A stretch of DNA of 64,000 bases from an uncultured Gammaproteobacteria bacterium (GTDB lineage: Bacteria; Pseudomonadota; Gammaproteobacteria; JASBUN01): the NCBI GenBank assembly GCA_963773585.1, contig CAVZBR010000001.1, positions 366,298-430,297 of the forward strand. Direction: 5' to 3'. The position numbers and the translations under genes are program-made. The notes below the pieces were generated by a model. That model saw only the letters and a list, made by a program, of their open reading frames with translations, was not told where the DNA came from and did not search any database. Below are positions 4,012 through 38,269 of this stretch, piece by piece (position 1 is the stretch's first letter; each line of letters opens with the position of its first letter).

Positions 4012-4314
4012 TCACTTGGCCGCGAGCTTGCGGCTGCAATATTTGAGCGCTGCCTTGTGCATGGCATCCGGGCTGCTGTACAGACCTTCGTCGACGGCGC
4101 GAATCAACATCGGATAGATGTTCGCTTCGTCGCTCGCGCCCCTCATCGCTTTTTTGGTCGACTCATAAGCCGCTTCGTTTTTTGCTGCTTTGGCGGCATA
4201 AAGGTCGGATGCGCGGTTGGCGGCGGTTTCGCAGTCAATGGCGTGGGCCGCGCCGGCTGCAACTACCATTGCAATGCCGCACGCGAGGTTGGTCAGTGCA
4301 GTGCGAGTCTTCAT
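4012..4314 (-). CDS. small secreted hypothetical protein
   Basis: Internal ATG (MKTRTALTNLACGIAMVVAAGAAHA signal peptide) at 4314, preceded by a GAGGGGGAA RBS. 100 aa. No recognisable family. Confidence 0.5.
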   Translation of the reverse strand: MKTRTALTNLACGIAMVVAAGAAHAIDCETAANRASDLYAAKAAKNEAAYESTKKAMRGASDEANIYPMLIRAVDEGLYSSPDAMHKAALKYCSRKLAAK

Positions 4315-4571
4315 CGCAAGTTCCCCCTCATCAGGTGCCGATTGGTATCGGGCCACTGCCGCCGGACGACGTCCGGCCACCGAACAGCGGCGTTCTGCCC
4401 GACATATCGGCAATTTCCATATTGACTTGAGCGAAACCATGGGGTAGAGCCGCAGCGAGCGGGAACCCAACCATGAGTATTTTCTTATATGCAGCAATGC
4501 TGTTTCGATCTGCTTGCCAGACGACAGTGCGTGCAGCACTATCGAACGCGGTCCGGCAGCGGAGATCACCC

Positions 4572-5000
4572 ATGGAGTTCTATGCCATCGCGCGTGCCGC
4601 CGCGCCGGCGTCGCTCTTGCAGCGCTACGTAACGGTCGGAAATCTTGCGCGTCTGTGCCCATCCATCGACAGGGTGCTGGCCGATGAAGGCGAACGCGGC
4701 GAGATCTATTGCGCCTGGGGTCAGTTCCGGATCACCCGTGAGGTGCTGCGTCACGGCGTGCGGTTTTCCCTGCCAAGCTGCGAGAGCGCACTGCAGTGGA
4801 GCATTACCGCGGCACGTCAGGAGACGGGTTGCGTGTTGGTCCATCTGGTTCTGAACCGCCGCGAGCTCGAGCCGGAATTCATCGAGGTATTGGAGCGGTT
4901 CGTGGACGACTGGCGTCTCGGGTTGGAGACGGAGCTGACCCAGCTGCGGGCCGCTTCCGCGCCGAAGCCGGGTCCGGCATGTATGCCCTGGTACGGATGA
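4572..5000 (+). CDS. hypothetical protein (uncertain)
   Basis: ATG at 4572 with GGAG 8 nt upstream. 142 aa with non-repetitive composition. Overlaps an R-rich antisense ORF judged to be an artefact. Region looks partly degraded. Confidence 0.3.
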   Translation: MEFYAIARAAAPASLLQRYVTVGNLARLCPSIDRVLADEGERGEIYCAWGQFRITREVLRHGVRFSLPSCESALQWSITAARQETGCVLVHLVLNRRELEPEFIEVLERFVDDWRLGLETELTQLRAASAPKPGPACMPWYG

Positions 5001-5035
5001 TCGATCGACATACTTTGCGCTAGCGACGTCCGCCG

Positions 5036-5720
5036 CTACGGCGTAAAGGCGATCCCACGCCGCCCACCTGCGTTTGAGCAATGCTTCTGGTATCCGGTCT
5101 TGGCAATCGAGACGATACCGAGCAATGCCGGCGCGCCAAGTTCGCGCGCTACGCGCAGTTCGGCCGAGATCCACCAGTAACCTCTCCCCGGGGACCTGGA
5201 GCCGGGCGCGCATAGCAGGATGTCTAAGCCGGGACATTGCGGTGACCCATTCCGGTTTAATGGTCTTGCCTCCGCGAACCTCCCACCAGACCAACAATAA
5301 ACCCATTGAATCCAAGCGCATCGACCCACTACGTGCCGCGTCACTAATTTCCCTGAGGCAACCACCTTTACACGCTCGCGCAATCCATATTCGCACAGCT
5401 TGTTCACCAGTAACGGAAAGCTCTCGCGCAAGGGCAAGCCCATATCAGCGACCAGCGGCATAGGGGCGGCGCCGGTGCCGCGGTCGGCACCATCTACGGT
5501 GGCGAAATCCGGGACGGATTCGACGCCGTGCTGGGACCTGATTGCGAGAAAGGCATCCAGTCAGCCGTATGCCACAGCGCGATGGAAGTGTCTTCTACAT
5601 AGATACTTGCGACCAGCGTCCGAAACGGCCCACGGGCTCTTTGTCGCCCGCAGATAGGTAAAAATACCTGGTCGAATAGAACACGTGCCAGTCCGAGATC
5701 CAATCTCCAGCTCTCCAAAT
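5036..5720 (-). pseudogene. remnant of FMN-binding glutamate-synthase-family (GltB domain 2-like) gene, frameshifted and truncated
   Basis: ORF 5036..5461 translates to ..GLPLRESFPLLVNKLCEYGLRERVKVVASGKLVTRHVV.., matching the conserved ..GLPwElGLaEthqtLvenGLRdRVrLrvDGGlkTGrDVv.. block of GltB-like proteins. The upstream motif (reverse complement of 5461-5500 gives DGADRGTGA, cf. GHDGGTGAS) is in a different frame. The downstream CHTNNCPVG region is unrecognisable. Confidence 0.5.
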
Positions 5721-5721
5721 C

Positions 5722-5816
5722 ACGTGTTAACGCGTATTTACGGTTTTATGCAGCAAGAATAGCGTTAAGGGCGAAATCAATTTGACGTTAGTCAGGCGTG
5801 TATTCAGAACGCGTTA
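5722..5816. promoter_or_regulatory. cluster of repeated ACGCGTTA-like motifs / imperfect palindrome upstream of the alkB-like gene
   Basis: acgtgttaacgcgta (5722-5736, palindromic around gttaac), gcgtta (5762-5767), acgtta (5785-5790) and acgcgtta (5809-5816) all fall within 100 bp upstream of the alkB-like start. Confidence 0.3.
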
Positions 5817-5881
5817 TGTCAGAGACCCGTTAGGGCGACTCGAAGCGCTATTCAACATTTGTACGGCTGGAGGTGATCGAC

Positions 5882-7036
5882 ATGAAGAAGTTTCTAGTCA
5901 ACGCGCGGTACTGGTTCGCGCCAATCCTGATCCTTGCATCGATGGTCGGCGTATTGGTAGGCGGCATGTTTTCGTGGTATGGGGTGCTGTTACTTGGCGT
6001 CGGTATCGTGATCGACACATTGCTCCGTTTTCAGACACCCGGGGCCGGTTACGACGATAACGGCGAAACCATGGGTATACCGTGGCTGCAGAATAGCGTC
6101 ATGTACTCGATGCTCGGTGTATTTGTGCTGCTGCAGGTGTCTCTGGCCTGGCGCATTTACCAATATGTCAACGGCGTGCCGATCAGCCAAGGGTTTGACC
6201 ACATGCTGTTCGGCATCCTGCCTTATCAGAACGGAATTTCAGGACTGAACCTGATCGGTGCCACTATATCGACCGGGATCTTCGCCGGTATCGGCATCAT
6301 CTATGGTCATGAACTGGCTCATACCAAAGGCGTTACTTTTGTCATCTCCCGGTGGATGATGGCGCTAAGCGGAAAAGCGCATTTCAGCTACGCGCACGTA
6401 TACAACCACCATCTTGAGCTTGGCCATGAGGACGATCCGGCAACGTCGCCTCGTGGTCGCAGCCTCTGGCAGCACTACCCGCTGGCGGGCATCGGCCAAT
6501 CGCGTTTCCTGTACCGCATGGAAAAGCAACGCCTCGAACGTCGCGGAAAGCCTTTCCTGACTTGGGAAAACCGCTGGCTGCGCGGATATGCCATGAGTTT
6601 GCCGACGCTGTTTTTGTTCTGGTATGCCGGAGCGTGGGTCGGAATCGGATGTCTTGCCATCGTCTGGTTTATCTCCAACTTCGAACTCGAAGCGCTCAAC
6701 TACATGGAGCACTACGGTTTGATCCGGGAAAAAGGTCAGCCCATCGACTACCGGCATTCCTGGGACAATTCCACGGCGTTTACAAGCTGGTTCTTCATCG
6801 AAATCGGTCGTCAGGCGGATCATCACGACCGTGGCGAAACCCACTTTTGGGAATTGGACGAAGTAGGTGCGCCCAACGTCGGTTGGGGCTACTTCACACT
6901 GTTCGCCGTGGCGCTGATGCCGCCGCTTTACCACGCCTACTACAAGAAGGAACTGGCGAGATGGGACGAACAATTTGCATCGGAAGGTGAGCGCCAGATC
7001 GCGGAACGCATCAATCGTCAGGTCGGTTACGCGTAA
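5882..7036 (+). CDS. alkB: AlkB-family integral-membrane di-iron alkane 1-monooxygenase / hydrocarbon hydroxylase
   Basis: ATG 5882 (alternative GTG 5873) with GGAGGTG RBS. Multiple TM helices. Histidine boxes HELAH, HVYNHHLELGHEDDPATSPRG, NYMEHYGL and RQADHH match the AlkB boxes (HELGHK, EHNRGHH..TPEDPATS, NYIEHYGL, LQRHSDHH). Confidence 0.85.
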   Translation: MKKFLVNARYWFAPILILASMVGVLVGGMFSWYGVLLLGVGIVIDTLLRFQTPGAGYDDNGETMGIPWLQNSVMYSMLGVFVLLQVSLAWRIYQYVNGVPISQGFDHMLFGILPYQNGISGLNLIGATISTGIFAGIGIIYGHELAHTKGVTFVISRWMMALSGKAHFSYAHVYNHHLELGHEDDPATSPRGRSLWQHYPLAGIGQSRFLYRMEKQRLERRGKPFLTWENRWLRGYAMSLPTLFLFWYAGAWVGIGCLAIVWFISNFELEALNYMEHYGLIREKGQPIDYRHSWDNSTAFTSWFFIEIGRQADHHDRGETHFWELDEVGAPNVGWGYFTLFAVALMPPLYHAYYKKELARWDEQFASEGERQIAERINRQVGYA

Positions 7037-7137
7037 ACGATCTTGTGTCGTGTGAGTGTACGCAAAGAGGGCGCCCCCTCGGGGAGGGGGCGGCGTTACC
7101 CGGATAGTCAAAGTCTACCCAAAGGAAGCATAAAACA

Positions 7138-7500
7138 ATGAACGAACAGACTCTTTACGAAAGGCTTGGTGGTTCGAAAGGCATTGCCGCAATAACGGAA
7201 GATATATGGTCGAATCATACCCAGAATCCGCTGGTCAGTAACCGATACGTGAATTCAGATCCGGAGAATGTCAAGCGATTGGTGCGTGAGATGTTTTGTG
7301 CGGGTACCGGCGGTACAGAGACATATACCGGCAAAGACATGCTGAGCGCACATACCGGAATGAATATCAACGATCAGGAGTTCAACGCAGTAATCGACGA
7401 TGTTTTAAAAGCGTTGAAATTGAACGATATCGGCAAGCGGGAAAGCGATGAGGTCCTGGCCATCCTGTGGTCGATGAAAGGCGAAATCGTTGGAGTTTGA
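7138..7500 (+). CDS. group-I truncated hemoglobin (trHbN-like)
   Basis: 120 aa beginning MNEQTLYERLGGSKGIAAITEDIWSNH, the typical trHb N-terminus. Length matches 2/2 hemoglobins. AAAGGAAGC RBS region upstream. Confidence 0.75.
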   Translation: MNEQTLYERLGGSKGIAAITEDIWSNHTQNPLVSNRYVNSDPENVKRLVREMFCAGTGGTETYTGKDMLSAHTGMNINDQEFNAVIDDVLKALKLNDIGKRESDEVLAILWSMKGEIVGV

Positions 7501-7543
7501 GAGTATTTGAGTCATCAGCCGATCTAGTGAAGGAGAAAAGGCT

Positions 7544-7726
7544 ATGAAAGTCACTTGGGATGAGAAGGTCTGTATCCATGCCGGGAAGTGTGTGGAAGGA
7601 AGTCCGGAAGTATTCAAAATTGAAAACGGAAAATTCGCGATCCATTTGGACGCCGGTGACGAGAATCAAGTTCGCTCCACGGTAGCGGCCTGTCCATCTG
7701 GTGCGTTGCAGATCCAAGAGCACTGA
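7544..7726 (+). CDS. small mono-cluster ferredoxin (divergent 4Fe-4S/3Fe-4S, Fer4_19-like)
   Basis: 60 aa. Cys at KVCIHAGKC and AACPSG (three Cys). AAGGAGAAAAGGCT RBS. Positioned between the monooxygenase and its reductase. Confidence 0.6.
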   Translation: MKVTWDEKVCIHAGKCVEGSPEVFKIENGKFAIHLDAGDENQVRSTVAACPSGALQIQEH

Positions 7727-7829
7727 ACAGCGCAATGTTCGGAACGTATTAAAGAACGGGTGCAAGCCGGTTTTCGAGCGAAAACAAGCCGGCGATGTAA
7801 CCAGCGAGATCTTGATCGAGGAGAACAGC

Positions 7830-8516
7830 ATGTTAGGCGATCGCTTGCAGAACAAAATGAAACTATACGGCAACCCGGCATGCCTGAATACAGCGAAGTG
7901 CTTGTTCACGGCTGCTGAAAAGGGCGTTGATATTGAGTCCCATTACGTGGGGCCAGACGGTCAGGGGGACGCAGCAGAAGCCGCGGTACTTTCGCCGCAC
8001 GGATCTCTTCCGGTACTCAGAGACGTGGACTTCGTTGTCTATGGTACCAATGCAATCATGTCGTATCTCGATGACAAAGGCTTCGGTCCTTCGCTGATTC
8101 CTCGGAACGCGACGGTGCGTACCGTCATGTATCAGTGGATTCACATCGCGTCTGAGTTGGCACAACCCGACGTCGCAGCCCTTATCAGTGGTGGCGGCAA
8201 TACCGATCTCGTTTCACATTGGTTCAGCGCGCTCAATGCGCACCTCGAGTCTAAGACCAAGGACGTCGCGCTGCGCGGAGACTATATCTGCGGCGCTTTC
8301 AGCCTCGCCGACATTCATTGGGCTGCCCTTGCGCAAGGTTGCGTACTTGCCGGCGCCGTCGACATCTTGAACTCGCAAGCGCAGGTGAAGAATTGGTGGC
8401 GTTTGATCAAAGAACATCCGAGTACGAGCAAAGAGAAAATCACGGCCTATGACATATTGCCAACTGCTAATGACATAAAGGGAAATAATCTTAGAGGCAT
8501 ACAGATAAACGCCTGA
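7830..8516 (+). CDS. glutathione S-transferase-like protein (paralog 1 of 3)
   Basis: GAGGAG RBS then ATG 7830. Thioredoxin-like N-domain (MKLYGNPACLNTAKCLFTAAEKGVDIE.., ..GSLPVLRDVDFVVYGTNAIMSYL) plus a helical C-domain. Paralogous to 9959..10672 and 10732..11523. Confidence 0.75.
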   Translation: MLGDRLQNKMKLYGNPACLNTAKCLFTAAEKGVDIESHYVGPDGQGDAAEAAVLSPHGSLPVLRDVDFVVYGTNAIMSYLDDKGFGPSLIPRNATVRTVMYQWIHIASELAQPDVAALISGGGNTDLVSHWFSALNAHLESKTKDVALRGDYICGAFSLADIHWAALAQGCVLAGAVDILNSQAQVKNWWRLIKEHPSTSKEKITAYDILPTANDIKGNNLRGIQINA

Positions 8517-8559
8517 AGTGTGCAATCGGCCCAGGCCGACCGACAGGAGTGATCGCCGG

Positions 8560-9645
8560 ATGTTCGGAGTATTCAAAAAGACCAAGCAGGCCTGGGCCGC
8601 GGAGGTTACTCCTTCCGGCAAGTCGATCACGGTGAAGGCGGGACAAAATCTGCTGAAGGCCGCATTGGACGCCGGGCTGCGGTGGCCCCACGACTGCCGA
8701 GTCGGCAGCTGCGGAACGTGCCGTTGCAAACTGAAGCAGGGGAAGGTGAAAGAGCTGTCTGACTTCGCTTATGTCCTGTCCCAGGAAGACCTGCAGTCGG
8801 GGATGATCCTTGCTTGTCAGTCTGCTTTGCGCAGCGATGTTTCGGTGGAAGTCGAGTTGCTGGAAGAAACGGCGCAAACCGTCAGCGTCACCTCGCACAA
8901 AGCCGTCATAGAGAGGGTAAACCCATTGACCCACGATATTGTCGAGTTGGTGATCAAGGCCGCTGACCAGTTTCCCCGTACGGCTGTAGCCGGACAATAC
9001 GCAGAACTGGAGATCGACGGTATCGCTGCGCCGAGGTCCTATTCGTTTGCCAAGGCCCCGGAGAACGAGTCCGATCACGAGATCACATTTTTCGTGCGTC
9101 GGGTTCCAGGCGGGGAGTGTACGGAGTGGTTGTTCAGCGAGGACCGGGCTGGAGAGCCCGTGACGGTCACCGGCCCCTACGGATCGTTCTGGTTGCGCCC
9201 TGGGAATTCACCGATCGTTTGCGTCGCAGGTGGCAGCGGCATGGCGCCCATCAAAGCGCTATTGGAAAGTGCGCTCAACAACGGCGCAAACAGGGACGTA
9301 TTGTTTCTGTTCGGGGCGCGCACGCAAAAGGATTTGTACTGTCTGGACGTCATGGACAGGCTACGTCAGGGTTGGAAGGGGAACTTCGAATTTGTGCCAG
9401 TTCTTTCCGAAGAGCCGGAAGACTCCGATTGGACAGGCGCTACGGGCTTTGTCACACACTATTTGGAAAGCGCATATATCGAGACGGGCAAGGTGGACGT
9501 GAAGAAAAGTCAGGGTTATTTGTGCGGGCCGCCGGCAATGGTTGACGCGGGCCAAGCTCTTCTGAGTTCCGCCGGAATGGCGAAGGAAGATATCCACTTC
9601 GACAAGTTTCTGGACGCGGCGACGATGCCCGCAGGCAGGAAATAG
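8560..9645 (+). CDS. XylA-type electron-transfer component: N-terminal plant-type [2Fe-2S] ferredoxin fused to FAD/NAD(P)H ferredoxin reductase
   Basis: ORF 8518..9645. ATG 8560 after CAGGAGTGA. CRVGSCGTCRC...LACQ 2Fe-2S motif, RSYSFA flavin-binding motif and GGSGMAPI NAD-binding motif. Confidence 0.85.
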   Translation: MFGVFKKTKQAWAAEVTPSGKSITVKAGQNLLKAALDAGLRWPHDCRVGSCGTCRCKLKQGKVKELSDFAYVLSQEDLQSGMILACQSALRSDVSVEVELLEETAQTVSVTSHKAVIERVNPLTHDIVELVIKAADQFPRTAVAGQYAELEIDGIAAPRSYSFAKAPENESDHEITFFVRRVPGGECTEWLFSEDRAGEPVTVTGPYGSFWLRPGNSPIVCVAGGSGMAPIKALLESALNNGANRDVLFLFGARTQKDLYCLDVMDRLRQGWKGNFEFVPVLSEEPEDSDWTGATGFVTHYLESAYIETGKVDVKKSQGYLCGPPAMVDAGQALLSSAGMAKEDIHFDKFLDAATMPAGRK

Positions 9646-9729
9646 AGTTTTCAGCAAGACGCGGCATTTGGAGTCTGAGGTCCCGGATGTATTCGGACTA
9701 GCAACGATTGTTTATTAGGAGATCAGAAC

Positions 9730-9939
9730 ATGGCGTCACTCAAGGCAATTTTTCTAATGATCGTATTTTCAGCGGCGGTCGCGTTCGGCATGAATGCGCT
9801 GGGACTTACGGAACACTTCCGCGAACCGGCCTATTCGTTGGCGGGCGCAGTTGTATTGCTCGTCGCGCTTATCGTGAACGTATGGCTCTATCTGAAAATT
9901 GCGGGGGAAACACCGTTTAAATGGTTCAAGGAAGACTAG
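9730..9939 (+). CDS. small two-TM membrane protein
   Basis: 69 aa. TTAGGAGATCAGAAC-ATG RBS. Two hydrophobic helices. Confidence 0.5.
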   Translation: MASLKAIFLMIVFSAAVAFGMNALGLTEHFREPAYSLAGAVVLLVALIVNVWLYLKIAGETPFKWFKED

Positions 9940-9958
9940 CCGACAGAGGAGCAGAGAC

Positions 9959-10672
9959 ATGGGGCTGTTTTCGCGAAAGAAGAAGTCTGGGCGCGGGATT
10001 CATCTGCGGGGGTTCCCCGGCGATTTGGATACATGCAAGTGCTTGTATCTGGCAGCCGAAAAGGGCATTCAAATGGACGTGGAGCTGGTGGACGTGACCG
10101 ACCGGGAACACGAAAATGCGGCGTTCCGCGCCTTGTCCCCCTTCGGGAAAGTTCCCTGCCTGGGTGAAGGCGGTTTAGTGATCTCCGGCGCCGCCGCCAT
10201 CCTGCCCTATCTCGACATCAAGGGTAGTGGTCCATCGCTAACCCCAAAAAAAGCCGCCCGCCTCGGAGACCAAAATTATTGGATTGAAGTCGGGCAATAC
10301 CGCGTGCTACCGCACGTTCACAATCTGGTCGACGAATACGTGCTGAAGCCAATGGTCTCATCGAGCCATACCCCTGATCCGGCGCAGATCGAACAGGCCG
10401 TGAACGCAGTAGAGCCTGTATTCGCGGTTGCAGACGAGTTCTTGGAAGGCAAAAACTATTTTGCGAGCGAATTTTCTTTTGCGGAAATTCACTGGGCGCC
10501 TTACCTGCACTTTTGGGTAATGACGGGCCAGGAGCAACGACTAGACGCGCATCCGAATCTCAAGCGTTGGTTCAGTCGCGTCCAAGCACGACAAAGTCAT
10601 GGCCGAAATACCTATGCGGTGTTACCGAGTCTGAAGCAGATTCAGGGTAAGGAGCTCAGGTATGTGGCCTGA
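9959..10672 (+). CDS. glutathione S-transferase-like protein (paralog 2 of 3)
   Basis: GAGGAGCAGAGAC-ATG. ..LRGFPGDLDTCKCLYLAAEKGIQMDVELVDV.. aligns with paralog 1. Conserved C-terminal ..FAEIHWAPYLHF.. block. Confidence 0.75.
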   Translation: MGLFSRKKKSGRGIHLRGFPGDLDTCKCLYLAAEKGIQMDVELVDVTDREHENAAFRALSPFGKVPCLGEGGLVISGAAAILPYLDIKGSGPSLTPKKAARLGDQNYWIEVGQYRVLPHVHNLVDEYVLKPMVSSSHTPDPAQIEQAVNAVEPVFAVADEFLEGKNYFASEFSFAEIHWAPYLHFWVMTGQEQRLDAHPNLKRWFSRVQARQSHGRNTYAVLPSLKQIQGKELRYVA

Positions 10673-10731
10673 CTTGAGCGGCCAACGGAAGACAGGCGCT
10701 TGCTTGGCGCCTGAAAATAGGGGAACTGACA

Positions 10732-11523
10732 ATGAACGAATTATTTGCGTTTGGTCGGTCTGCAGACGATGGTGCAAAGGACGCCCGCTATGGTTCAGCA
10801 GGAGATTTGAAAAAGACACAGTACGTTCTGCAGCTTTTGGGATTTCCGGCGCACGCGGATACATTGAAATGCCTAATCACCGCAGTCGAAATGGGCATGG
10901 AGACGGACGTCGGCGTGCTGGACATTCTCGAGGGGCAGGACGAAAGCAATGAATACCTGGCAGTGTCCCCGCTGGGTCTCGTGCCAGTGTTAAAAGAGGC
11001 CGAGTATTGCGTGGCGGGCGAAGCGGGAATCATGAGCTACATCGAGGCGCGAGGCCTGGGGAAACGGTTGCCACCGAAAAATGCCGCGCTGCTGGCGGAA
11101 CAGAATTATTGGTCCGATATTGCGTGCACGGAGGTGGGCCCGCACATCAAGGCACTGGTGAAAGAACATATCCTGGCGCCGATGGATGATTCCGTGTACA
11201 TGGTCAAATCGGCGGACATCGAGGCTTCGAGGAAGGCGCTCGCGGCGCCACTGGATGCGTTGAACGCTCAATTGGCAAACAATACGTTCATTATCGGCAA
11301 CTATTCCTTTGCGGATATTCATTGGACCGCTTACGTACATTTGCTGTACGAAGCTGGCGAGGGAGACCTTATAGACCAGCGTCCGAACGTCAAGGCATGG
11401 TTCGATCGGATCCGGACGCACAAGAGTTTCTCGGGGCAGAATATAGTTGCGTACGAGCTCTTGCCGAAGCTCGCGGATATCAAGAAAAAGAAACTTAATT
11501 CAATCGTAATAGACGATTATTGA
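10732..11523 (+). CDS. glutathione S-transferase-like protein (paralog 3 of 3, with 30-aa N-terminal extension)
   Basis: ..LLGFPAHADTLKCLITAVEMGMETDVGVLDI.. and ..FADIHWTAYVHL.. align with the other two paralogs. Confidence 0.7.
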   Translation: MNELFAFGRSADDGAKDARYGSAGDLKKTQYVLQLLGFPAHADTLKCLITAVEMGMETDVGVLDILEGQDESNEYLAVSPLGLVPVLKEAEYCVAGEAGIMSYIEARGLGKRLPPKNAALLAEQNYWSDIACTEVGPHIKALVKEHILAPMDDSVYMVKSADIEASRKALAAPLDALNAQLANNTFIIGNYSFADIHWTAYVHLLYEAGEGDLIDQRPNVKAWFDRIRTHKSFSGQNIVAYELLPKLADIKKKKLNSIVIDDY

Positions 11524-11957
11524 GAAGTGTGCTGGCAGGGAGAAGCGTGATGTTCTGGCGATTGAGTCGATCGGACAGCGAACTGGAAAGGGCAATGTCG
11601 ACATTGAACCCTTTTGTCTCAGACGCCTTGAGCGGGATAGACACACGGGAGCTTGAGCGGGGCGGCGCGCGAATGATGGCGGAGTGCTACGTGTACGGCG
11701 CCGTACGTTACCTGGCATCGTACGACGGCATGAGGGCCACCAATACTGGAATGTTGCTGGAACAAATGCTGGCAACACATTTCAGGGCGGATCACGAAGA
11801 AATCGGCCGCTGTCGGGCGCTATTTTCTGAAGTTGGAGCGAAAGACAGGGAGCAGGTATTCATGACAGAGGGAGCCAGCGCCATACGCCGTTGGCTGGTC
11901 AACGATGACCGGACGGTCGGAAGCCATCTAAAACAGTTGCTTGAGTCGGTGCACTGA
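11520..11957 (+). CDS. hypothetical protein (start uncertain)
   Basis: 145-aa ORF immediately after GST paralog 3. No recognisable domain. Could start at internal ATG 11550. Confidence 0.3.
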   Translation: MRSVLAGRSVMFWRLSRSDSELERAMSTLNPFVSDALSGIDTRELERGGARMMAECYVYGAVRYLASYDGMRATNTGMLLEQMLATHFRADHEEIGRCRALFSEVGAKDREQVFMTEGASAIRRWLVNDDRTVGSHLKQLLESVH

Positions 11958-12057
11958 TAGGCGCGCGGAAAGCGGTTTTGAGCGCAGTTGTCGCTTCAGG
12001 ATGACCAGAGTCGGATCGGCGGACAAACAGAGAGATCAAACGTAGGAGAGTATTAAC

Positions 12058-12171
12058 ATGTCTCAGAGTGGCGGAAACAATGCAATGGTGTTTGTAGGTG
12101 CGATAGCAGTTGGGGTCGCGATTATCGCGGTGACGCTGTATCTATCGGGTGCATTGAACGCGTTGTTTTAA
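12058..12171 (+). CDS. 37-aa hydrophobic micropeptide
   Basis: Not in the ORF track (<60 aa). GTAGGAGAGTATTAAC-ATG RBS. MSQSGGNNAMVFVGAIAVGVAIIAVTLYLSGALNALF, a single TM helix. Confidence 0.35.
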   Translation: MSQSGGNNAMVFVGAIAVGVAIIAVTLYLSGALNALF

Positions 12172-12933
12172 TCGGGTGAACATGATGCAAGAAGTCTAGG
12201 TGATCAGTTTACGGTAGATTTCACCGATGCGAAATGGAGCTTCTCGACCTGGTCTACTACGACAAAGTTATCGTGCCCGAACATATGGGGAAGGTAGTTC
12301 GGCGCATGGTCGTCGATCGTGATGCAAAACGGATGGATCCCCGCCTGGCGCGTCTACATGAGCGCCTTGCGCGTATAGGCACCTTGATAGCCGCTTTCGT
12401 CGTCAGACCGGCCGTCTGACAAGACGACCAATAAACGCTGTACGCGCTTCTCCAGCCAAGAGCTTCGCGCTGTGGTGGCGTATGGCGACTCCCATGCGCG
12501 TGAAGTGCTGCGGCATTGGATTCAGCGGTCACGGTTTGTTCTGTTAAGCGGCACCATCGCTCGCGATAGCATTGGCGCGCCTGATCCCATTCGTCATATG
12601 TAAACTCCGTGTCTGCTGAAGGCGCATCCGGCGTTGCAGGTGTAGGGAGTTCCTCGTCGCGGCTTCCGTGGGCCGCGGGCTCGGGTATCTCCTGAAAATC
12701 CGGAGAACGCATCGCTGTGTCGTGCTGGAGAAGTTTGTCTTGGTTTAATGCATTCAATACGACTGCGGGCTCCAGTGCGCCTTGATATTCGGCGGGAGGG
12801 GGATCGTTGTCCTCAGGATACACGCGTGCCAGCCAGCGCAGACTATCGCTGCTACGTCAAGTAGACGGACTGTTGCTGCCGCGCACCATGAGCGCGCAAA
12901 ACCGCTGTCGGCACTGTTTCATGGCCCGTAACG

Positions 12934-13740
12934 TTATGCGAAATACAGGTTCAGCCAGTACGCGCCCCAACCGAGCAAACCCAGGCCGCTGGCGAACCGA
13001 ACCCGGCGTGAAGCGGGCAAAATCTTTTCCATCAGTACGAATCCGGTGATCAGCGCCACCCAAAGCATATTCATGACACCGACGGCAAACAATATCAGCA
13101 TCAGCGCCCAACAGCAGCCCACGCAATAAATGCCGTGCCGAATCCCCATTAAGAGGGCTCCACGGGCCCCGTCTCTCCATTCCGTCATTAGAAAGCCCAA
13201 TGGACTGCGGCATTTCGTGAGGCAGGCGTCTTTCAGGGGCGTCCACTGGTAAAGCCCCGCCCCGATAAGGACCAAACCGCTCAACAGGTAACTGGCACTG
13301 TTCATCATAGGATTGAGCAAGCCCACTGTATGCAACGGCCACTGAGCGATGGCCGCCAAGACGCTAAATCCCGTCCACGCGATCAAATAACCGGCAACAA
13401 ATATGAAAGTCGGTGTATATGGCTGTTCGCGACGGCGCAGACTTCGGCTTACGGTCGCGAACATCGTCACCATCGGTAGAGACGACGGCGTCATCATGGC
13501 GACCATCATGATCGACCACATCACCAAAAGCATGAAAAAGTCGGTGGGTGACCAAATTGAGGAAGCAGACGGAGGCATCCACATCTCAAGCTGTCCCATG
13601 TTGCCCATGGCCCCCGCCATGTGGAACATGTACCCCCAACCCGCCAGTGTGATGGCAGCCAAACCGCCGCCGACGATCAAATGGTCTCGAGCGCTGAGCC
13701 GTGTGTGCACCGCATCCGGAAATGGAATGGATTTTGACAT
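12934..13740 (-). CDS. DUF2182-family predicted metal-binding integral membrane protein
   Basis: Internal ATG MSKSIPFP at 13740 with GAGAGGG RBS. Polytopic membrane protein rich in Met, His and Cys. Paired with DUF1326 as in other genomes. Confidence 0.6.
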   Translation of the reverse strand: MSKSIPFPDAVHTRLSARDHLIVGGGLAAITLAGWGYMFHMAGAMGNMGQLEMWMPPSASSIWSPTDFFMLLVMWSIMMVAMMTPSSLPMVTMFATVSRSLRRREQPYTPTFIFVAGYLIAWTGFSVLAAIAQWPLHTVGLLNPMMNSASYLLSGLVLIGAGLYQWTPLKDACLTKCRSPLGFLMTEWRDGARGALLMGIRHGIYCVGCCWALMLILFAVGVMNMLWVALITGFVLMEKILPASRRVRFASGLGLLGWGAYWLNLYFA

Positions 13741-14042
13741 AGCCCTCTCTCGTTGGCAGTAACGGTGCGCTCTATCAAAACATTCTGCACGTGGCGTTGC
13801 GCTAGGGAACGATGATGCGCCAGGCGCGCGGCACAGAAAACACGTAGTTTTGCGTATATATGAGGGAAATCCCAATGCCTAGTGTGAGAAGCGCGGATTG
13901 AGTTCCCGTTCGGGGGGTTCAATGCGTAGCGCGACACTTGATGATTAGTACCAGCGGGCCAGTTTGTAGTGAACGAGCATTGTCCTGGCGCGTTTGATGC
14001 TGTCATTTCACCACTCGAATACCAGAACGAGAGGACAAAGCG

Positions 14043-14651
14043 ATGGTGAATGAATCGGATTGGAGCCTTAAGGGTGACTATTTTGAGTCGTGCAACTGCG
14101 ACTTGGTATGTCCTTGTATTTTTTTACGCCCACCCACAGAGGGATTTTGCGAGGCATTCGTAGGGTGGCACGTGGAAAAGGGTCATATGGGCGATGTAAG
14201 CCTGGACGGTCTGAACGTAGCTGCTTGGCTGCACTCGCCGGGCGCGCTGACCGATGGCGGTTGGCGCCTAGCGTTGTACATAGATGAACGGGCTGACGAG
14301 GCACAGACTGCGGCGTTCACAAAGATATTCGGCGGGGAAGTGGGTGGACATCCCGCGGTTTTGGCGAGCTTGGTCGGCGAGCTGATGGGTGTTAAGAATG
14401 TGCCGATCGAATTCAAGAAAGAGAACGGCACACACGTCCTCGATATTCCGGGAATCGGCAAGAACGTGACTGAGGCGGTGGCGGGAGAAGATGGTGGAGC
14501 CGTCATGGTTTCCAACCATCCGCTGGCCGTTTCTCCGGGGAATCCGGTTCGGATTTCGGCTTCGACGCAGGCGCAATTCAAAGATTACGATGTGACTTGG
14601 ACGCAACACGACAAAGTGGGTTTGTCGGCACCATTTTCCTATCACCCGTGA
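14043..14651 (+). CDS. DUF1326-family protein
   Basis: 202 aa with N-terminal YFESCNCDLVCPC cysteine motif characteristic of DUF1326. Divergent from the DUF2182 gene. Confidence 0.65.
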   Translation: MVNESDWSLKGDYFESCNCDLVCPCIFLRPPTEGFCEAFVGWHVEKGHMGDVSLDGLNVAAWLHSPGALTDGGWRLALYIDERADEAQTAAFTKIFGGEVGGHPAVLASLVGELMGVKNVPIEFKKENGTHVLDIPGIGKNVTEAVAGEDGGAVMVSNHPLAVSPGNPVRISASTQAQFKDYDVTWTQHDKVGLSAPFSYHP

Positions 14652-14827
14652 ATTTGCGTGTTTTGGCATTGCGCCGCCAAGCGCACGGCTTACCCGTCAG
14701 GCGCTGAATCGGTACAACAGCCACCGAACGGACGGTGAGAGCGGCCGAGGATGCGGCGCGCAACGGGCTCGCCGCGCAGTGGCCGCCTCGAAAAGCGACG
14801 CGCCGTGCGGGCCGATGACGTAATTCT

Positions 14828-15214
14828 CTAGGCGCCGGAGCAAAAGTTCAGATATTGTTGGGCGTCCATGAGTCCAGCGAAATCGGCGGCGTCGTCCGGT
14901 TGTATTCGAAGCAGCCAACCCGCCTTATACGGGTCGCCATTGATAAGTTCAGGCCTATTCAGAAGTTCAGTATTGGTCGCGACTATCATGCCGCCCAACG
15001 GTAAAACCAATTCACTTACCACTTTGGCGGATTCGATAAGGCCGAACGTTTGACTCTTGGCGACAGTGTCACCGGGATCGGGAATTTCGACAAACAGAAT
15101 GTCACCGAGACTCTCCTGGGCAAAATTCGTGATGGCGATCAGATAGGTGCCTTCCTTGTCTTTTCGACACCCCAGGTGAGATTGGTTGCACAGGTAGCCA
15201 CCAGGGCATTGCAT
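14828..15214 (-). CDS. GcvH-family lipoyl-carrier protein (orphan, no gcvT/gcvP nearby)
   Basis: ..YLIAITNFAQESLGDILFVEIPDPGDTV..LIESAKVVSELVLPLGG..PELINGDPYKAGWL.. matches the GcvH fold, including the lipoyl-lysine in the ESAK motif. Start at MQCPGGY. Confidence 0.7.
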   Translation of the reverse strand: MQCPGGYLCNQSHLGCRKDKEGTYLIAITNFAQESLGDILFVEIPDPGDTVAKSQTFGLIESAKVVSELVLPLGGMIVATNTELLNRPELINGDPYKAGWLLRIQPDDAADFAGLMDAQQYLNFCSGA

Positions 15215-15356
15215 TGAATAGATCCTCACTTCGATAAAGGCGAATGGAGCAATTTCGCCGCCAATACGTATGGCCACGGAAATCCGATATGGGCGACGGG
15301 ACTAAACGGTGGGGCGGCGGCCTGGAATAATGACCAGGCCGCCGCGTTCACGTTGA

Positions 15357-16589
15357 TCAAAACGTCCAGCTCAGACCGGCGCCGAATTGCCAAGCGCTGG
15401 CTTCGACTTTTGTGCCGCCGATCTGTTCGCTTTCTTCCAAGGCGGTGGCAGCGTGAATGTCGATGCGAAAGTTGTTATTCACAGCATACCCAAGGCCTGC
15501 CGTGACTTGGTGCTTCCAGATAACCTCTGCATTGGTGGCTTGCAGATAGCGTACCAATGTCGGGTTGAGTTGCACGGTAGAGCCGCCAGCAACGAGGGAA
15601 GTGGCCTCACCGACACTTGAGCCGACGTTGCCTTTGATGGGGCTGTCGGCGTAGCTATAGCCTAACCGCCATTTGAATTTCCCTTGGGTGAGTTGCGCGC
15701 CCAGGCCAAAGACCGTCTGATTGTCATATATGTCCTGGTAGAAGTCGGCCTGTCCCCAGTTCTTCCAGGTGACATCGCCTTCGATCAGCAGATTGCCGCC
15801 CATTAGGGATGAGTTCGCGATGCCCAGCGCGAGTTCTTGCGGCTGCTCGACGGTAAGGTCATAGAAACCCGTGGCGGAATATTTGGTCGCGTTGTCGTAT
15901 TTGATGGAAAGCGGGCTGCGGTAATAGGCGCCAAAGGTGGTTGGACCAAGTTCATAGGTCGTGCCGAGGGTGGCACGTATCCCGTATCCGTGCACGGAGG
16001 AGCCGTTTTCCAGCAGACCGAGCTGTAGGTAACCGCTTCCGAGAGTCACCATGCCGCCCACATTCCAGTGGTCGTTGAGTTTGTACGCGAGCCCTGCGTT
16101 GGCGCCGAAGAGGATCAGCTCCGCCGTTGGACTCAGGCTTCCCGGTACCGACCGGAAATCGGATCCGATACCCGATACGGGTGTCAAGCCGACGCCGAGC
16201 GTCAGGCCATTGCCGAGAGGTTGGATAATGCTGACGTTCGGCAGCAGGTAATCACTCGCGTCGGAGTCGGCGGACCACGCCGTACCGGTTGCACTTCCAT
16301 CGTGGGTATCGGTGACCGCTGGGTGATAAAACGTGGCGCCGAACAGGAAATGCGTGCCGTAGTCATACTGACTCAGGGTGGCGGGGTTGCCGAATACTGC
16401 AGCGGAAGTGTCCTGCGGCCGTGCGATACCGACACCACCCATTCCGCCGGCGGCAGGCATCATGGTGAGGTTCAGGTCGGTCCCGTAGTTGGCCGCCTGG
16501 GCGCTCCCGGCTAATAGCGTCATCAAAGTTGCGTACAACACGCGCACTTTTGACCGTCCTGTGATGTGATGACTCAATGGATTGTTCAT
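15357..16589 (-). CDS. FadL/TodX/XylN-family outer-membrane hydrophobic-compound channel
   Basis: 410 aa. Signal peptide ending ..AGSAQA. Gly/Ser/Thr/Tyr-rich beta-barrel composition. C-terminal ..GLSWTF aromatic terminus typical of the FadL family. Confidence 0.75.
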   Translation of the reverse strand: MNNPLSHHITGRSKVRVLYATLMTLLAGSAQAANYGTDLNLTMMPAAGGMGGVGIARPQDTSAAVFGNPATLSQYDYGTHFLFGATFYHPAVTDTHDGSATGTAWSADSDASDYLLPNVSIIQPLGNGLTLGVGLTPVSGIGSDFRSVPGSLSPTAELILFGANAGLAYKLNDHWNVGGMVTLGSGYLQLGLLENGSSVHGYGIRATLGTTYELGPTTFGAYYRSPLSIKYDNATKYSATGFYDLTVEQPQELALGIANSSLMGGNLLIEGDVTWKNWGQADFYQDIYDNQTVFGLGAQLTQGKFKWRLGYSYADSPIKGNVGSSVGEATSLVAGGSTVQLNPTLVRYLQATNAEVIWKHQVTAGLGYAVNNNFRIDIHAATALEESEQIGGTKVEASAWQFGAGLSWTF

Positions 16590-18760: not shown

Positions 18761-19975
18761 ATGGGGGGCTATCAGATGAATGGTTCGGAGCGAGAAGCGC
18801 GCTTATCCGATCAATTACCTCGAGACCTGGACAGCATTTTGCGACGCACGCACCAGGTGGCCACCGAGATAGTTGCGCCAGACAGCGAACAGGTCGACCG
18901 TGAAGCCCGTTGGCCCCGAGAAGGTTTGCAGGCGTTGCAGGCGGCCGGTCTGGCAGGGTTGGTGATACCCGAATCAGCGGGCGGTCTCGGCCAAGGCCTG
19001 TACGCACTCGCACAAGTCTGTGAAATCCTCGGGCAGGAATGCGCCTCGACCGCTATGTGTTTCGGCATGCACTGCGTCGGCGCGGCGGTTCTGGCGGCCA
19101 AAGCAACGCCGGATCAGCAACGTCGCTACCTTGAGCCCATTGTCCAGGGACGTCATTTAACCACGCTGTCGCTGAGCGAACCGGGAACCGGCACCCATTT
19201 TTATCTTCCCCAGACCGAACTCCGTTCGCTCGGACCCGATCGCTATCAAGTCACAGGTACCAAGGCCTTCGTGACCAATGGTGGATGTGCCGATTCCTAT
19301 GTCGTCTCGGCGGTGGCGGCCGACGCCGGAGCGCCGCCAGGACAGTTCTCCTGTGTGGTGGTGCCGCAGGATGCCCCCGGTCTGAAATGGGGGGCGCCTT
19401 GGGACGGTATGGGTTTGCGCGGCAATTCCTCGCGGAGTCTGGAGCTGCAGGCGGTAGCGGTACCTCACCAGGACTTGCTGGGCGAAGAGGGCGATCAAAT
19501 CTGGTATGTATTCAATGTCATTACACCTTATTTTCTAACTGCGATGGCCGGCAGCTATCTGGGTGTGGCCAGCGCTGCCATTAACCAGGCGCGTGAGTGG
19601 ATGGTCCGTCGGCACTACACCAACAGCGGCTCATCACTGGCGCAACTCCCGGTGCTGCAGCATCAACTTGGTACGCTTTGGGGCGTTTTGGAAAGGACGC
19701 GGCGTCTGGTCTACTATGCCGCGCGCAGTTTTGATGCCGACGAGCCCGATGGTCTGGCCAGCCTGTTCACCGCAAAAGCGGAAATGGCTGATTGCGTCGT
19801 GCACGTGGTCAACGAAGCCATGACGCTTACTGGCGGCAGCGCGTACCGCAACAATTCTTTATTACACCGATTGATGCGCGATGCGCGCGCGGCCCATGTA
19901 ATGTCGCCGACCACCGATCTGCTGCGCATTTGGACCGGCCGCGCATTACTCGGCCAGCCTATTCTGGGTGACTGA
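18761..19975 (+). CDS. acyl-CoA dehydrogenase-family flavoprotein
   Basis: 404 aa with the ACAD N-terminal alpha-domain, middle beta-domain (..LSEPGTGTHF..) and C-terminal alpha-domain. Stop TGA at 19973-75 lies 2 nt before the kinase start. Confidence 0.8.
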   Translation: MGGYQMNGSEREARLSDQLPRDLDSILRRTHQVATEIVAPDSEQVDREARWPREGLQALQAAGLAGLVIPESAGGLGQGLYALAQVCEILGQECASTAMCFGMHCVGAAVLAAKATPDQQRRYLEPIVQGRHLTTLSLSEPGTGTHFYLPQTELRSLGPDRYQVTGTKAFVTNGGCADSYVVSAVAADAGAPPGQFSCVVVPQDAPGLKWGAPWDGMGLRGNSSRSLELQAVAVPHQDLLGEEGDQIWYVFNVITPYFLTAMAGSYLGVASAAINQAREWMVRRHYTNSGSSLAQLPVLQHQLGTLWGVLERTRRLVYYAARSFDADEPDGLASLFTAKAEMADCVVHVVNEAMTLTGGSAYRNNSLLHRLMRDARAAHVMSPTTDLLRIWTGRALLGQPILGD

Positions 19976-22284: not shown

Positions 22285-22941
22285 GTGATGATGGACGGTC
22301 CGGTTTATATTGTGGACGACGAGGAGACCATGCGTCGTGCACTGAGCGTATTGCTGTGTTCGGCGGACATTCGCTGCCGCGACTTCGATTCTGCCAAGGC
22401 ATTTCTAGAGGCGCTGGACGAATTGGAACCCGGCTGCTTACTGCTCGATCTCTATATGGCTGGAATGACAGGTCTTGAACTGCAGGAAAAGCTTATAGAG
22501 CGCCAGTTCTCTATGCCAATTATCGTCATTACCGGTCACGGGGAGGTGGAAACTGCCGTACGAGCAATGAAACGCGGTGCGGTAGACTTCGTCCAAAAGC
22601 CATTCGATCCGGCTGAGTTGTTGGACCGGCTGCACCATAGCATGGTGGCATTTCACGCTCAGCGGGATGTGAACGAGGCGGCCGACAGAGCACTCGAGCG
22701 GGTCGCGATTTTGACGCCAAGAGAGCGCGAGATTGCCAATCAGTTTCTCGCGGGGAAACGTAACAAACAAGTCGCGCATGCCCTGTCCATTAGCGTTCGG
22801 ACGGTGGAGTTGCATAGAGCCAGCATTATTCGAAAACTGGATGCTAAAAGCATTGCGGACGCCGTGCACACCATTACCTTGGCCGAGAGCGCGGCCGGCG
22901 ATGCGGTCAACGGGAAAAGTACGCCACCTGGGAAGCGCTGA
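22285..22941 (+). CDS. FixJ/LuxR-family response regulator
   Basis: GGAGG RBS. REC domain (IVDDEE..D..MAGMTGLEL..) plus C-terminal LuxR-type HTH (..LTPREREIANQFLAGKRNKQVAHALSISVRTVELHR..). Confidence 0.85.
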   Translation: MMMDGPVYIVDDEETMRRALSVLLCSADIRCRDFDSAKAFLEALDELEPGCLLLDLYMAGMTGLELQEKLIERQFSMPIIVITGHGEVETAVRAMKRGAVDFVQKPFDPAELLDRLHHSMVAFHAQRDVNEAADRALERVAILTPREREIANQFLAGKRNKQVAHALSISVRTVELHRASIIRKLDAKSIADAVHTITLAESAAGDAVNGKSTPPGKR

Positions 22942-23460
22942 ACATGCATTTGGCACGTACGTAGAACTACGTGGTCGCCCGATGCCCCAGCGCATCACGG
23001 GACTGACATACCGGATTCACTGCTCCGTCATGCTCCGAATCCTCCTGCTTTAGCTCGCTAGCCCCTGGTTGCCGTGGACCCCTGACTTTACCGAAGCACG
23101 CATATTTGCGTATTTACCTACCCACTAGCCAGGTCTAAGTTTATTCGTTACTCGTGGCTCGCAACGCGCCTGACCTTTGCGTAACCGCGTTGCATATATC
23201 CAACGCCGTTGAGAAGTCGCGTGTTGGTCGCGCCAATCTGCGGGGGACTAAGACGCGTCTTCATGGGGAAACGCCAGATGGTTTGTAAGAGGTCTTGCGT
23301 TATCTCCGTTTGCGCGGCCCAGTGACCGACGGCTATCCGAGAAATCCAAGGCGACCGGGCACTTGGAAGACGACGGGATTGATCACGTCGTCCACCATGG
23401 AAACTTATCGTGCTCACGATGGGCGCACTGACCAGTAATGACATGGGGGATCGTGCGTTG

Positions 23461-25413: not shown

Positions 25414-25804
25414 GTACTGAGGGCATCTCGTTATCGATGAGCGTGGGCTGGAAATCGACAGATCTGGCGCGCCAGCACATCTAACTGTGTTCGATAGTGG
25501 GACGGGCGCCATTTTTGGCGACCGGAAATTCGGCTGCCGCAATGGCCCGGAAATCCTTCCCGTCCGCCGGGCAGTTCCACCCAGGTGGGCGTTCCCGCGG
25601 GCAAGAAAACGCCACGGACGCACGCCCGGTCACGTTACCTGCCGGTTTTCCCGGCCGACCGGCCGGAGGCGTCTTTGCAAAGGCCATCCAGAAAACAGAG
25701 TGACACTTTGTCCGCAATGCCCCAGGTTTGGCGCACCGGCAAAACCCTAGGGCGAGCCAAGGGCTGACGGGTCGTGCATTCACGCCCAGCAGTGCAATGG
25801 CACA

Positions 25805-25819
25805 CTAGTTGCTCATCTG
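25805..25819 (+). promoter_or_regulatory. sigma-54 (-24/-12) promoter
   Basis: TGGCAC-ACTAG-TTGCT is a near-perfect match to the TGGCACG-N4-TTGCW consensus. Oriented toward the ATP-grasp gene about 440 nt downstream. Confidence 0.6.
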
Positions 25820-38245: not shown

Positions 38246-38269
38246 TTGCCGAACATTGATGCTTGAGGA

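Follow-up and report, generated by a model that had tools for sequence, protein, structure and literature searches.

Genes for glutathione S-transferases (GSTs) lie inside the oxygenase clusters for isoprene (IsoI/IsoJ), styrene (StyI/StyJ) and biphenyl (BphK), in more than one copy, and the same is true of the stretch of DNA analysed here. This stretch, which we call the window, comprises 64,000 nucleotides (nt) from an uncultured gammaproteobacterium of the JASBUN01 lineage (assembly GCA_963773585.1, contig CAVZBR010000001.1, positions 366,298 to 430,297). The described clusters encode soluble di-iron, flavin or Rieske oxygenases, and they conjugate epoxides or dechlorinate. In contrast, the window has a membrane AlkB-like oxygenase, its three GST-like proteins (GST1, GST2 and GST3) lack the catalytic Ser or Tyr, and the downstream pathway genes are absent. 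Searches of PDB and NCBIfam returned no IsoI or StyI match, and no comparison aimed at these enzymes was made. For the reasons given below, we put at roughly even chances a reading in which the three proteins would be accessory thiol/redox proteins of a candidate membrane monooxygenase for dimethylsulfide (DMS) or a similar small methylated compound.

With the XylM/XylA and AlkB systems, the window shares a membrane di-iron hydroxylase of the FA_desaturase family with AlkB-type His boxes, as well as a XylA-type reductase with 2Fe-2S, flavin adenine dinucleotide (FAD) and nicotinamide adenine dinucleotide (NAD) domains. It differs from them in that no rubredoxin was found in the cluster and in that it has an extra Fer4_19 ferredoxin, a truncated globin, a GST-fold protein, and a small membrane protein. 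A review of the electron-transfer proteins of AlkB mentions no GST partner. The reaction that we propose, DMS + O2 + NADH -> methanethiol + formaldehyde, upstream of methanethiol oxidase, is shared with DmoAB of Hyphomicrobium sulfonivorans. However, DmoA is a soluble luciferase-family enzyme that depends on reduced flavin mononucleotide (FMNH2), and it is unrelated in sequence and cofactor to an AlkB-like hydroxylase. Our searches of the literature available to us found no described AlkB-plus-GST system and no AlkB-like DMS monooxygenase.

The locus consists of nine consecutive genes on the + strand at 5.8-12 kb of the window, from the AlkB-like hydroxylase through a protein of 120 amino acids (aa):

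5882-7036, + strand, AlkB/XylM-like membrane di-iron hydroxylase, 384 aa (Pfam FA_desaturase, 95 bits)
7138-7500, + strand, truncated (group I-like) globin, 120 aa (Pfam Bac_globin, 39.7 bits)
7544-7726, + strand, small ferredoxin, 60 aa (Pfam Fer4_19, 59 bits)
7830-8516, + strand, GST1, GST-fold protein, 228 aa, core gene of the module
8560-9645, + strand, NADH:ferredoxin-type reductase, XylA/BenC/MmoC-like, 361 aa (Pfam Fer2, FAD_binding_6 and NAD_binding_1)
9730-9939, + strand, small membrane protein with two hydrophobic stretches, 69 aa (a called gene in public contigs)
9959-10672, + strand, GST2, GST-fold protein, 237 aa, accessory paralogue
10732-11523, + strand, GST3, GST-fold protein, 263 aa, accessory paralogue
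11595-11957, + strand, 120-aa protein after GST3 (start codon uncertain, alternative TTG at 11520)

The translated hydroxylase contains the His boxes HELAH, NHHLELGH, NYMEHYGL and ADHH, that is, the AlkB set including NYxEHYG within an FA_desaturase protein, as in AlkB and XylM. By sequence, its PDB matches were the alkane 1-monooxygenases 8f6t and 8sbb alone (E = 5e-26). The start at 5882 was confirmed by an identical 384-aa database protein, and the enzyme is highly conserved, with 68-85% identity over the 120 best clusters. The cluster also encodes an electron donor of the XylA type: an N-terminal plant-type 2Fe-2S domain is followed in the reductase by the FAD and NAD domains, and the top NCBIfam match is BenC at 240 bits, which is below the cut-off.

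Fold, paralogy and active site of the GST-like proteins

An initial annotation, made from the sequence alone, had described three tandem, moderately similar GST-like paralogues that arose by an old local triplication. Public gene calls contain GST1, GST2 and GST3 as identical proteins with identical starts, and Pfam GST_N and/or GST_C scored above the gathering threshold in each of them; in GST3, GST_C passes alone, with GST_N at 20.3 against a cut-off of 20.9. AlphaFold2 with family alignments gave complete GST folds for GST1 (predicted local distance difference test, pLDDT, of 93) and GST3 (pLDDT 88.6). In both models, a thioredoxin-like beta-alpha-beta-alpha-beta-beta-alpha domain is followed by helices, and Foldseek matched the models to many GSTs with a probability of 1.00. 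The cis-Pro is invariant across 128 homologues. The alpha-6 N-capping box, S/T-x-x-D, reads S-L-A-D in GST1, S-F-A-E in GST2, and S-F-A-D in GST3; these boxes align with the SLAD of Phi GSTs and are followed by H-W, where Phi GSTs have 'LADLHH'. Having both the fold and the N-capping features, GST1, GST2 and GST3 belong to the cytosolic GST superfamily. Pfam domains, predicted folds and Foldseek matches thus agree with the GST fold, including the thioredoxin-like N-domain, that had been proposed for them.

Plant Phi-class GSTs (poplar GSTF1/F7/F8, Arabidopsis GSTF2/F9, and maize GST-I/III) were the top PDB matches both by sequence search and by Foldseek, with 20-26% identity and template modelling scores (TM-scores), normalised to the target, of 0.75-0.88. 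Common to these enzymes and the proteins of the window are the two-domain fold, the cis-Pro loop, the alpha-6 capping box followed by His, and a similar length. In contrast to Phi GSTs, to which identity reaches no further than the range just given, the proteins of the window have Cys, Asp or His for the catalytic Ser and Gly for the Glu of the Glu-Ser(-Arg) glutamyl-binding site. They also have an extra conserved C-terminal tail (A-Y-x-x-L-P...D-I-K) and N-terminal extensions, and they are bacterial and encoded within a monooxygenase operon. On these alignments, the three proteins constitute a compact subfamily of bacterial, Phi-like GSTs whose predicted active site carries Cys, His or Asp. 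Phi is therefore the nearest class, and the SspA type, which the initial annotation had listed among the classes to consider, does not hold. For all three proteins the NCBIfam matches to SspA, FzlA and MaiA are far below threshold, and membership of SspA (35-40 bits, cut-off 314) or FzlA (27-33 bits, cut-off 300) was rejected.

Pairwise BLASTP identities among GST1, GST2 and GST3 are 31% (E = 2e-31), 32% (3e-38) and 36% (3e-54), consistent with the moderate similarity noted earlier. In DNA, likeness among the three copies is limited to stretches of 20-52 nt under the conserved motifs, with 65-80% identity. Because the resemblance is confined to these motif-coding stretches, the copies are real diverged paralogues, and a duplication introduced by the assembly, the artefact of which the initial annotation had warned, is ruled out. 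The word tandem applies to GST2 and GST3, which are separated by a gap of 59 nt and are the sole adjacent pair; it does not apply to GST1, since the genes for the reductase and the small membrane protein lie between GST1 and GST2. Likewise, the N-terminal motif KCL(F/Y/I)..(E)(K/M)G, which corresponds to helix alpha-1, is carried by all three proteins as described, and the C-terminal motif FA(D/E)IHW..Y(L/V)H, also ascribed to all three, is carried by GST2 and GST3, its counterpart in GST1 being LADIHWAALAQ. The extensions ahead of strand beta-1 measure 9 aa in GST1, about 13 aa in GST2, and 32 aa in GST3, close to the 9, 14 and 30 aa first given. The 32-aa extension of GST3 is conserved and predicted to be disordered.

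Orthologue grouping, drawn from the 120 best database relatives, assigned 70 of the best database matches to GST1, 50 to GST2, and 8 to GST3. These orthologues share 46-91% identity with their own copy in the window and 25-41% with the other two copies. In a neighbour-joining tree rooted with Phi GSTs, the GST1 clade has 100% support, and GST2 and GST3 are sisters. The ratio of nonsynonymous to synonymous substitution rates (dN/dS), computed against the two closest genomes, was 0.08-0.09 for GST1, 0.11-0.13 for GST2, and 0.08-0.12 for GST3, compared to 0.06 for the reductase and 0.08 for the globin of the module. These values rule out pseudogenes or decaying copies. Many Gammaproteobacteria carry separate orthologues of each copy, and purifying selection acts on all three; the triplication is therefore old and all three copies are functional, with none decaying. 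In this respect the earlier description of an old local triplication with divergence holds up. Judging from the same comparisons, GST1, GST2 and GST3 are ancient paralogues of a bacterial Phi-like GST-fold protein, with GST2 and GST3 coming from the same stock.

Catalytic positions were set by HMMER alignments to PtGSTF7 of poplar and ZmGST-III of maize. The catalytic Ser of Phi GSTs (Ser13 in poplar GSTF1) aligns with Cys18 in GST1, Asp22 in GST2, and His41 in GST3, so that none of the three has the Ser of the Phi class, and none has a catalytic Tyr. In poplar GSTF1, the residues Glu68, Ser69 and Arg70 bind the glutamyl group of glutathione (PMC4274894). This Glu-Ser-Arg site, at the beta4-alpha3 turn, reads Gly-Thr-Asn in GST1, Gly-Ala-Ala in GST2, and Gly-Glu-Ala in GST3, and the Gly in place of Glu is invariant in the 128 homologues. 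Further landmarks in GST1 are K23-C24-L25 in alpha-1, cis-Pro61, and Y71-G72-T73, which stands for x-Glu-Ser; in GST2 they are C26-x-C28 in alpha-1, cis-Pro66, and Cys67 right after it.

Among GST1 orthologues, the catalytic position is Cys in 53/70 and Asp in 15/70. It is His in 40/50 and Asp in 9/50 of the GST2 orthologues, and His in seven and Asp in one of the eight GST3 orthologues. In GST1 orthologues with Cys18, position 71, at the beta4-alpha3 turn, is occupied by Tyr or Phe, whereas 15 of the 17 without Cys18 have Cys71; in all, 68/70 have a Cys at position 18 or 71. The active-site cysteine of GST1 thus appears, from the alignment, to have been relocated between these two positions rather than lost, and a Cys that has moved and been kept is probably used. 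Alignment positions 22, 24 and 62 of the GST2 orthologues are each Cys in 88-94% of the sequences.

Replacement of the catalytic Ser of poplar GSTF1 by Cys (S13C) abolished conjugation and peroxidase activity and created deglutathionylation activity (PMC4274894). Given this result, the natural Cys18 speaks for thiol chemistry of the Cys type in GST1 rather than for conjugation. Cys-type GSTs (Omega, Lambda, DHAR, bacterial Beta and the engineered GSTF1 S13C) have their catalytic Cys at the N-terminus of alpha-1, as GST1 does. Unlike a member of those classes, however, GST1 is closest to none of them by sequence, the rest of its glutathione site is altered, and about a quarter of its orthologues have the Cys at position 71. 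GST2 and GST3 differ further from the Cys-type enzymes in having no Cys at the catalytic position.

The module in other species and its proposed link to dimethylsulfide

A GST1 profile, run against one genome for each GTDB species, gave 158 relatives, and the best 80 loci were fetched. Gene presence was counted at the 56 species-level loci in which GST1 is flanked on either side by 6 kb or more:

Small membrane protein within 3.5 kb of GST1, 53/56 loci
Reductase near GST1, 48/56 loci
Ferredoxin adjoining GST1, 45/56 loci
AlkB-like hydroxylase near GST1, 38/56 loci
Globin within the searched flanks, 20/56 loci
FadL/TodX channel near the module, 18/56 loci
GST2 and GST3 together, 17/56 loci (about 30% of lineages)

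GST2 and GST3 occur as a pair, the single exception being at a locus whose end is rearranged. GST1 is a core gene of the module, and GST2 and GST3 are an optional accessory pair; the initial annotation had missed both this difference in status and the link to DMS. The 80 loci come from Thiogranum, Cocleimonas, Candidatus Thiodiazotropha (symbionts of lucinid clams), Arenicellales and many other Gammaproteobacteria, as well as from Candidatus Porisulfidus and other sponge symbionts and from Methylophaga, including the cultured M. sulfidovorans DSM 11578. The closest module-bearing relatives of the window are two metagenome genomes (L006 and L021, with GST1 at 91% identity), followed by Thiogranum (78%). 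In a clade of reduced genomes (L091, positions 4996-15353, and also L012-L020), the cluster has the AlkB-like gene, GST1, the small membrane protein, GST2, GST3 and one further gene, and is without ferredoxin or reductase. At L091, an MbnB_TglH_ChrH and HvfC_N gene pair lies about 4 kb downstream of the cluster, with several small open reading frames (ORFs) ahead of it.

The locus of Methylophaga thiooxydans DMS010 carries mtoX, unrelated genes, the AlkB-like gene, globin, Fer4_19 ferredoxin, GST1, reductase, small membrane protein, FadL, and a second globin. Krober and Schafer grew M. thiooxydans on DMS or on methanol and analysed its RNA by RNA sequencing (RNA-seq; PMC6548844). Their Table S6 gives the following values:

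Fatty acid desaturase domain protein, MDMS009_226: DMS 1359, methanol 10
Oxidoreductase, NAD-binding domain, MDMS009_61: DMS 618, methanol 12
glbN, MDMS009_199: DMS 601, methanol 21
Methanethiol oxidase mtoX, MDMS009_768: DMS 17350, methanol 37

The proteins of the locus, EEF81234, EEF81069 and EEF81207, have accession numbers equal to 81008 plus the tag numbers 226, 61 and 199. Given this constant offset, the induced genes are the hydroxylase, the reductase and the second globin of the module, and in the published data these three genes are induced 29-136-fold by DMS. For further genes of the locus (GG657883.1, positions 236304-256990), the predicted tags are MDMS009_208 for GST1, _214 for the first globin, _306 for the small membrane protein, and _172 for FadL. 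The second truncated globin, the DMS-induced glbN MDMS009_199, follows FadL in Methylophaga (L088, positions 13403-13894; L067, positions 11978-12520). By eye, its N-terminus resembles a signal peptide (MMKSTFKTLLASAILTTPMLFGSVQA, then HD); an exported truncated globin would be unusual.

Genes for the expected products of DMS breakdown also lie close to the module. In L086, a metagenome genome that is Methylophaga-like, the module directly adjoins mtoX and its SCO1/MauG partner (NCBIfam MtoX, 717 bits, cut-off 650); mtoX stands within 10 kb of the module in L056, L079, L081 and L088. Directly downstream of the module in L093 are genes for S-(hydroxymethyl)glutathione dehydrogenase, S-formylglutathione hydrolase and Gfa, all above the NCBIfam cut-offs, and in L081 the module is adjoined by frmA, fghA and mtoX. 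All the loci with such formaldehyde genes (L010, L081 and L093, from two independent lineages) carry GST2 and GST3, no more than a hint that this pair is tied to glutathione-dependent formaldehyde genes. Because hydroxylation of a methyl group of DMS would be expected to yield methanethiol and formaldehyde, the nearby mtoX and formaldehyde genes support, short of proof, the module as a candidate membrane DMS monooxygenase. Methylophaga has neither dmoA nor ddh, so that the enzyme initiating DMS breakdown is missing, and a hypothetical 'methyltransferase' has never been found (PMC6548844). A preprint on lucinid symbionts invokes a 'multicomponent DMS monooxygenase' acting via dimethyl sulfoxide; we set this candidate aside, since it is not shown to be an AlkB-like/GST module.

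From the induction in one cultured species and from the gene order and neighbourhood, together with the fold and the conservation of the three paralogues, we infer both the substrate of the hydroxylase and the chemistry of the GST proteins as follows. NADH would reduce the reductase, and the electrons would pass, perhaps via the ferredoxin, to the AlkB-like di-iron site. This site would hydroxylate a methyl group of DMS to give a hemithioacetal, which would fall apart into methanethiol and formaldehyde. GST1, with its active-site Cys, would most likely serve as a Cys-type thiol transferase or oxidoreductase that acts on the reactive sulfur or one-carbon products, possibly by resolving methylthio mixed disulfides or by passing the hydroxymethyl group to a thiol; alternatively, it might hold an enzyme component in the reduced state. 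GST2 and GST3, with His or Asp at the site, would be specialised, lineage-specific helpers.

A stronger version, which we hold only tentatively, is that this module is what degrades DMS in Methylophaga and in many marine Gammaproteobacteria that oxidise sulfur, an enzyme long missing, with obligatory GST partners of a new, non-Ser/non-Tyr chemistry. In that version, hemithioacetal, methanethiol or formaldehyde leaving the membrane enzyme would be trapped by the Cys of GST1 or the His of GST2 and GST3. If true, this would be the first membrane di-iron monooxygenase needing GST-like subunits, and it would cover the symbionts of lucinid clams and sponges. The release of DMS, the main biogenic sulfur gas, from the ocean is governed by bacterial breakdown, and the GST trio leads to a concrete candidate system with a parts list, found in at least 80 species-level genomes that include cultured strains. 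The subfamily also bears on how GST chemistry evolves, with Ser replaced by Cys, His or Asp and a Cys shifted within the active site. Were the DMS link to fail, there would still be an AlkB-type system that is widespread, strongly conserved and equipped with unusual obligatory partners.

Several points weigh against a DMS monooxygenase assisted by the GST proteins. The authors of the RNA-seq study took the induced 'desaturase' to reflect membrane-lipid repair, and in an earlier study extracts of M. thiooxydans grown on DMS showed no detectable activity of a DMS monooxygenase. GST1 is not among the transcripts in the published extract of the RNA-seq table, and the supplementary tables of the Methylophaga paper, which are extracts, contain no GST1 peptides. 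The induction itself could be a stress response to methanethiol, sulfide or peroxide. In the 64-kb window, mtoX, frmA, fghA and gfa were not found, and elsewhere these genes adjoin the module in few, partly related lineages. FadL and the sigma-54 activators described below, with a MimR_N-type N-terminal domain in the Thiodiazotropha orthologue, would be just as compatible with a hydrocarbon substrate. As the Glu-Ser pair has been lost, binding of glutathione by GST1, GST2 and GST3 would not be assured. Lastly, in Porisulfidus a unit of ferredoxin, GST1, reductase and small membrane protein has no AlkB-like gene within 10 kb, and, judging from this arrangement, the partner of GST1 may be the electron-transfer proteins rather than the hydroxylase.

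The Porisulfidus unit (L022-L038; for example, L026, positions 9700-12909) is located between a PNPase gene and a hydroxyacylglutathione-hydrolase-like gene.

Alternative roles for the GST-like proteins

The alternative that survives best, although we consider it unlikely, is a non-catalytic scaffold or regulator. GST1, alone or in hetero-oligomers with GST2 and GST3, would dock via the small membrane protein and would tether the ferredoxin and reductase to the membrane hydroxylase or gate them there, much as GST-like domains assemble other complexes. The degraded glutathione site would be expected of such a protein, as would the presence of the small membrane protein near GST1 at 53/56 loci and the retention of the GST genes and the membrane protein with the hydroxylase in reduced genomes whose cluster has no reductase. 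The N-terminal peptides of GST2 and GST3, conserved yet disordered, could also be read in this way, and the top NCBIfam matches, weak as they are, are SspA and FzlA. However, those matches reach 27-40 bits against cut-offs of 300-314, and the GST genes have a dN/dS as low as that of the module enzymes. Moreover, Cys or His is kept at the catalytic position and the Cys of GST1 relocates between positions 18 and 71, which points to chemistry in the active-site cleft. The idea in the initial annotation that one or more copies might be regulatory, non-catalytic GST-like proteins fits poorly with these residues.

Somewhat less probable still is classical detoxification in the style of the isoprene or styrene systems, in which the AlkB-like enzyme would activate a hydrocarbon and the GSTs would conjugate the intermediates. 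AlkB-family enzymes can epoxidise alkenes, and a hydrocarbon-type hydroxylase, a FadL/TodX channel and sigma-54 activators (one of which has a MimR_N domain in its Thiodiazotropha orthologue) would suit this role, as would the GST_N and GST_C domains themselves. Conjugation of different reactive intermediates was also the other role first put forward for the three paralogues. It is not favoured by our analysis, given that all three proteins are without a catalytic Ser or Tyr and have lost the Glu-Ser pair that binds the glutamyl group; as judged from these residues, they are unlikely to be classical conjugating enzymes. A Cys at the catalytic position, as in GST1, abolishes conjugation in a Phi GST (PMC4274894). 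Furthermore, no IsoH-like dehydrogenase gene or IsoG-like CoA-transferase gene follows the GST genes at 5-23 kb of the window, and the related loci that we inspected are also without downstream dehydrogenase and CoA-transferase genes. The DMS induction of three module genes was seen in Methylophaga, a methylotroph, which likewise argues against a hydrocarbon pathway.

We regard as improbable, more so than either of these, that the proteins handle metal or iron-sulfur clusters, with the catalytic-position His, the alpha-1 C-x-C and the Cys after cis-Pro of GST2 and the active-site Cys of GST1 binding metal or a cluster so as to load or repair the di-iron site or to carry electrons: C, H and D are typical metal ligands, the three GST2 cysteines are kept in 88-94% of orthologues, GST1 lies beside ferredoxin (45/56) and reductase (48/56), and genes for PpoB2, of a copper-chaperone family, and DUF1326 are neighbours in some lineages, but the ligand set differs among the three paralogues, the catalytic position varies within groups (C/D, H/D), and PtGSTF7, the sole aligned Phi GST with a Cys in the alpha-1 region, has it in a different alignment column from Cys24.

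Neighbouring genes and other features of the window

Within the module, the small membrane protein of M. thiooxydans that is orthologous to that of the window is labelled DUF1145 in UniRef; the protein of the window has no Pfam match, and the DUF1145 match was not reproduced. The 120-aa protein encoded after GST3 has no Pfam or NCBIfam match. Its dN/dS is 0.29-0.37, and homologues follow the module at 13/56 loci. Beyond the module, Pfam searches identified the following genes:

12934-13875, - strand, PpoB2 (copper-chaperone family)
14043-14651, + strand, DUF1326
15357-16589, - strand, FadL/TodX-type outer-membrane channel for hydrophobic compounds (Toluene_X)
18761-19975, + strand, acyl-CoA-dehydrogenase-like flavoprotein
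19978-22275, + strand, PAS histidine kinase (multi-PAS)
22285-22941, + strand, LuxR-type response regulator

Membership of PpoB2 and DUF1326 in the module is doubtful, because they lie beside it only in the window's own clade, L005 and L014. Next to the module, the trio of flavoprotein, kinase and regulator recurs in loci of Thiodiazotropha, Thiogranum, Cocleimonas and Methylophaga. Its order is constant, also in L003, L005, L007, L008, L010 and L088, and it travels with the module. The flavoprotein, which might be part of the sensor, has sub-threshold NCBIfam matches only (Rv1679 family, 257 bits; SfnB, 113 bits), and an SfnB- or DszC-like identity was dropped for this reason.

No sigma-54 promoter was found ahead of the AlkB-like operon within two mismatches of the consensus (positions 4273-8846). 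The sole perfect match to the sigma-54 consensus, TGGCACACTAGTTGCT, lies at 25798-25813 on the + strand, upstream of an ATP-grasp gene. This gene is flanked by two GAF-domain sigma-54 activators, the spans being 23410-25413 (+), 26051-27268 (+) and 27507-29471 (-). Scans for sigma-70 promoters and for terminators gave results at or below chance.

The guanine plus cytosine (G+C) content is 0.53-0.557 at positions 6000-16000 of the window, compared to about 0.59-0.65 elsewhere in it. This lower G+C, together with the patchy spread of the module over several gammaproteobacterial orders and the 68-85% identity of the hydroxylase, suggests horizontal spread.

Further along the window, an ORF of 1912 aa at 43964-49702 on the - strand combines UvrA interaction and DNA-binding domains with several ABC ATPase modules, and is about twice the length of an ordinary UvrA. 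The SUF genes (sufB, a sufC-like ABC ATPase gene, and sufD), at 36800-40374 on the + strand, look ordinary.

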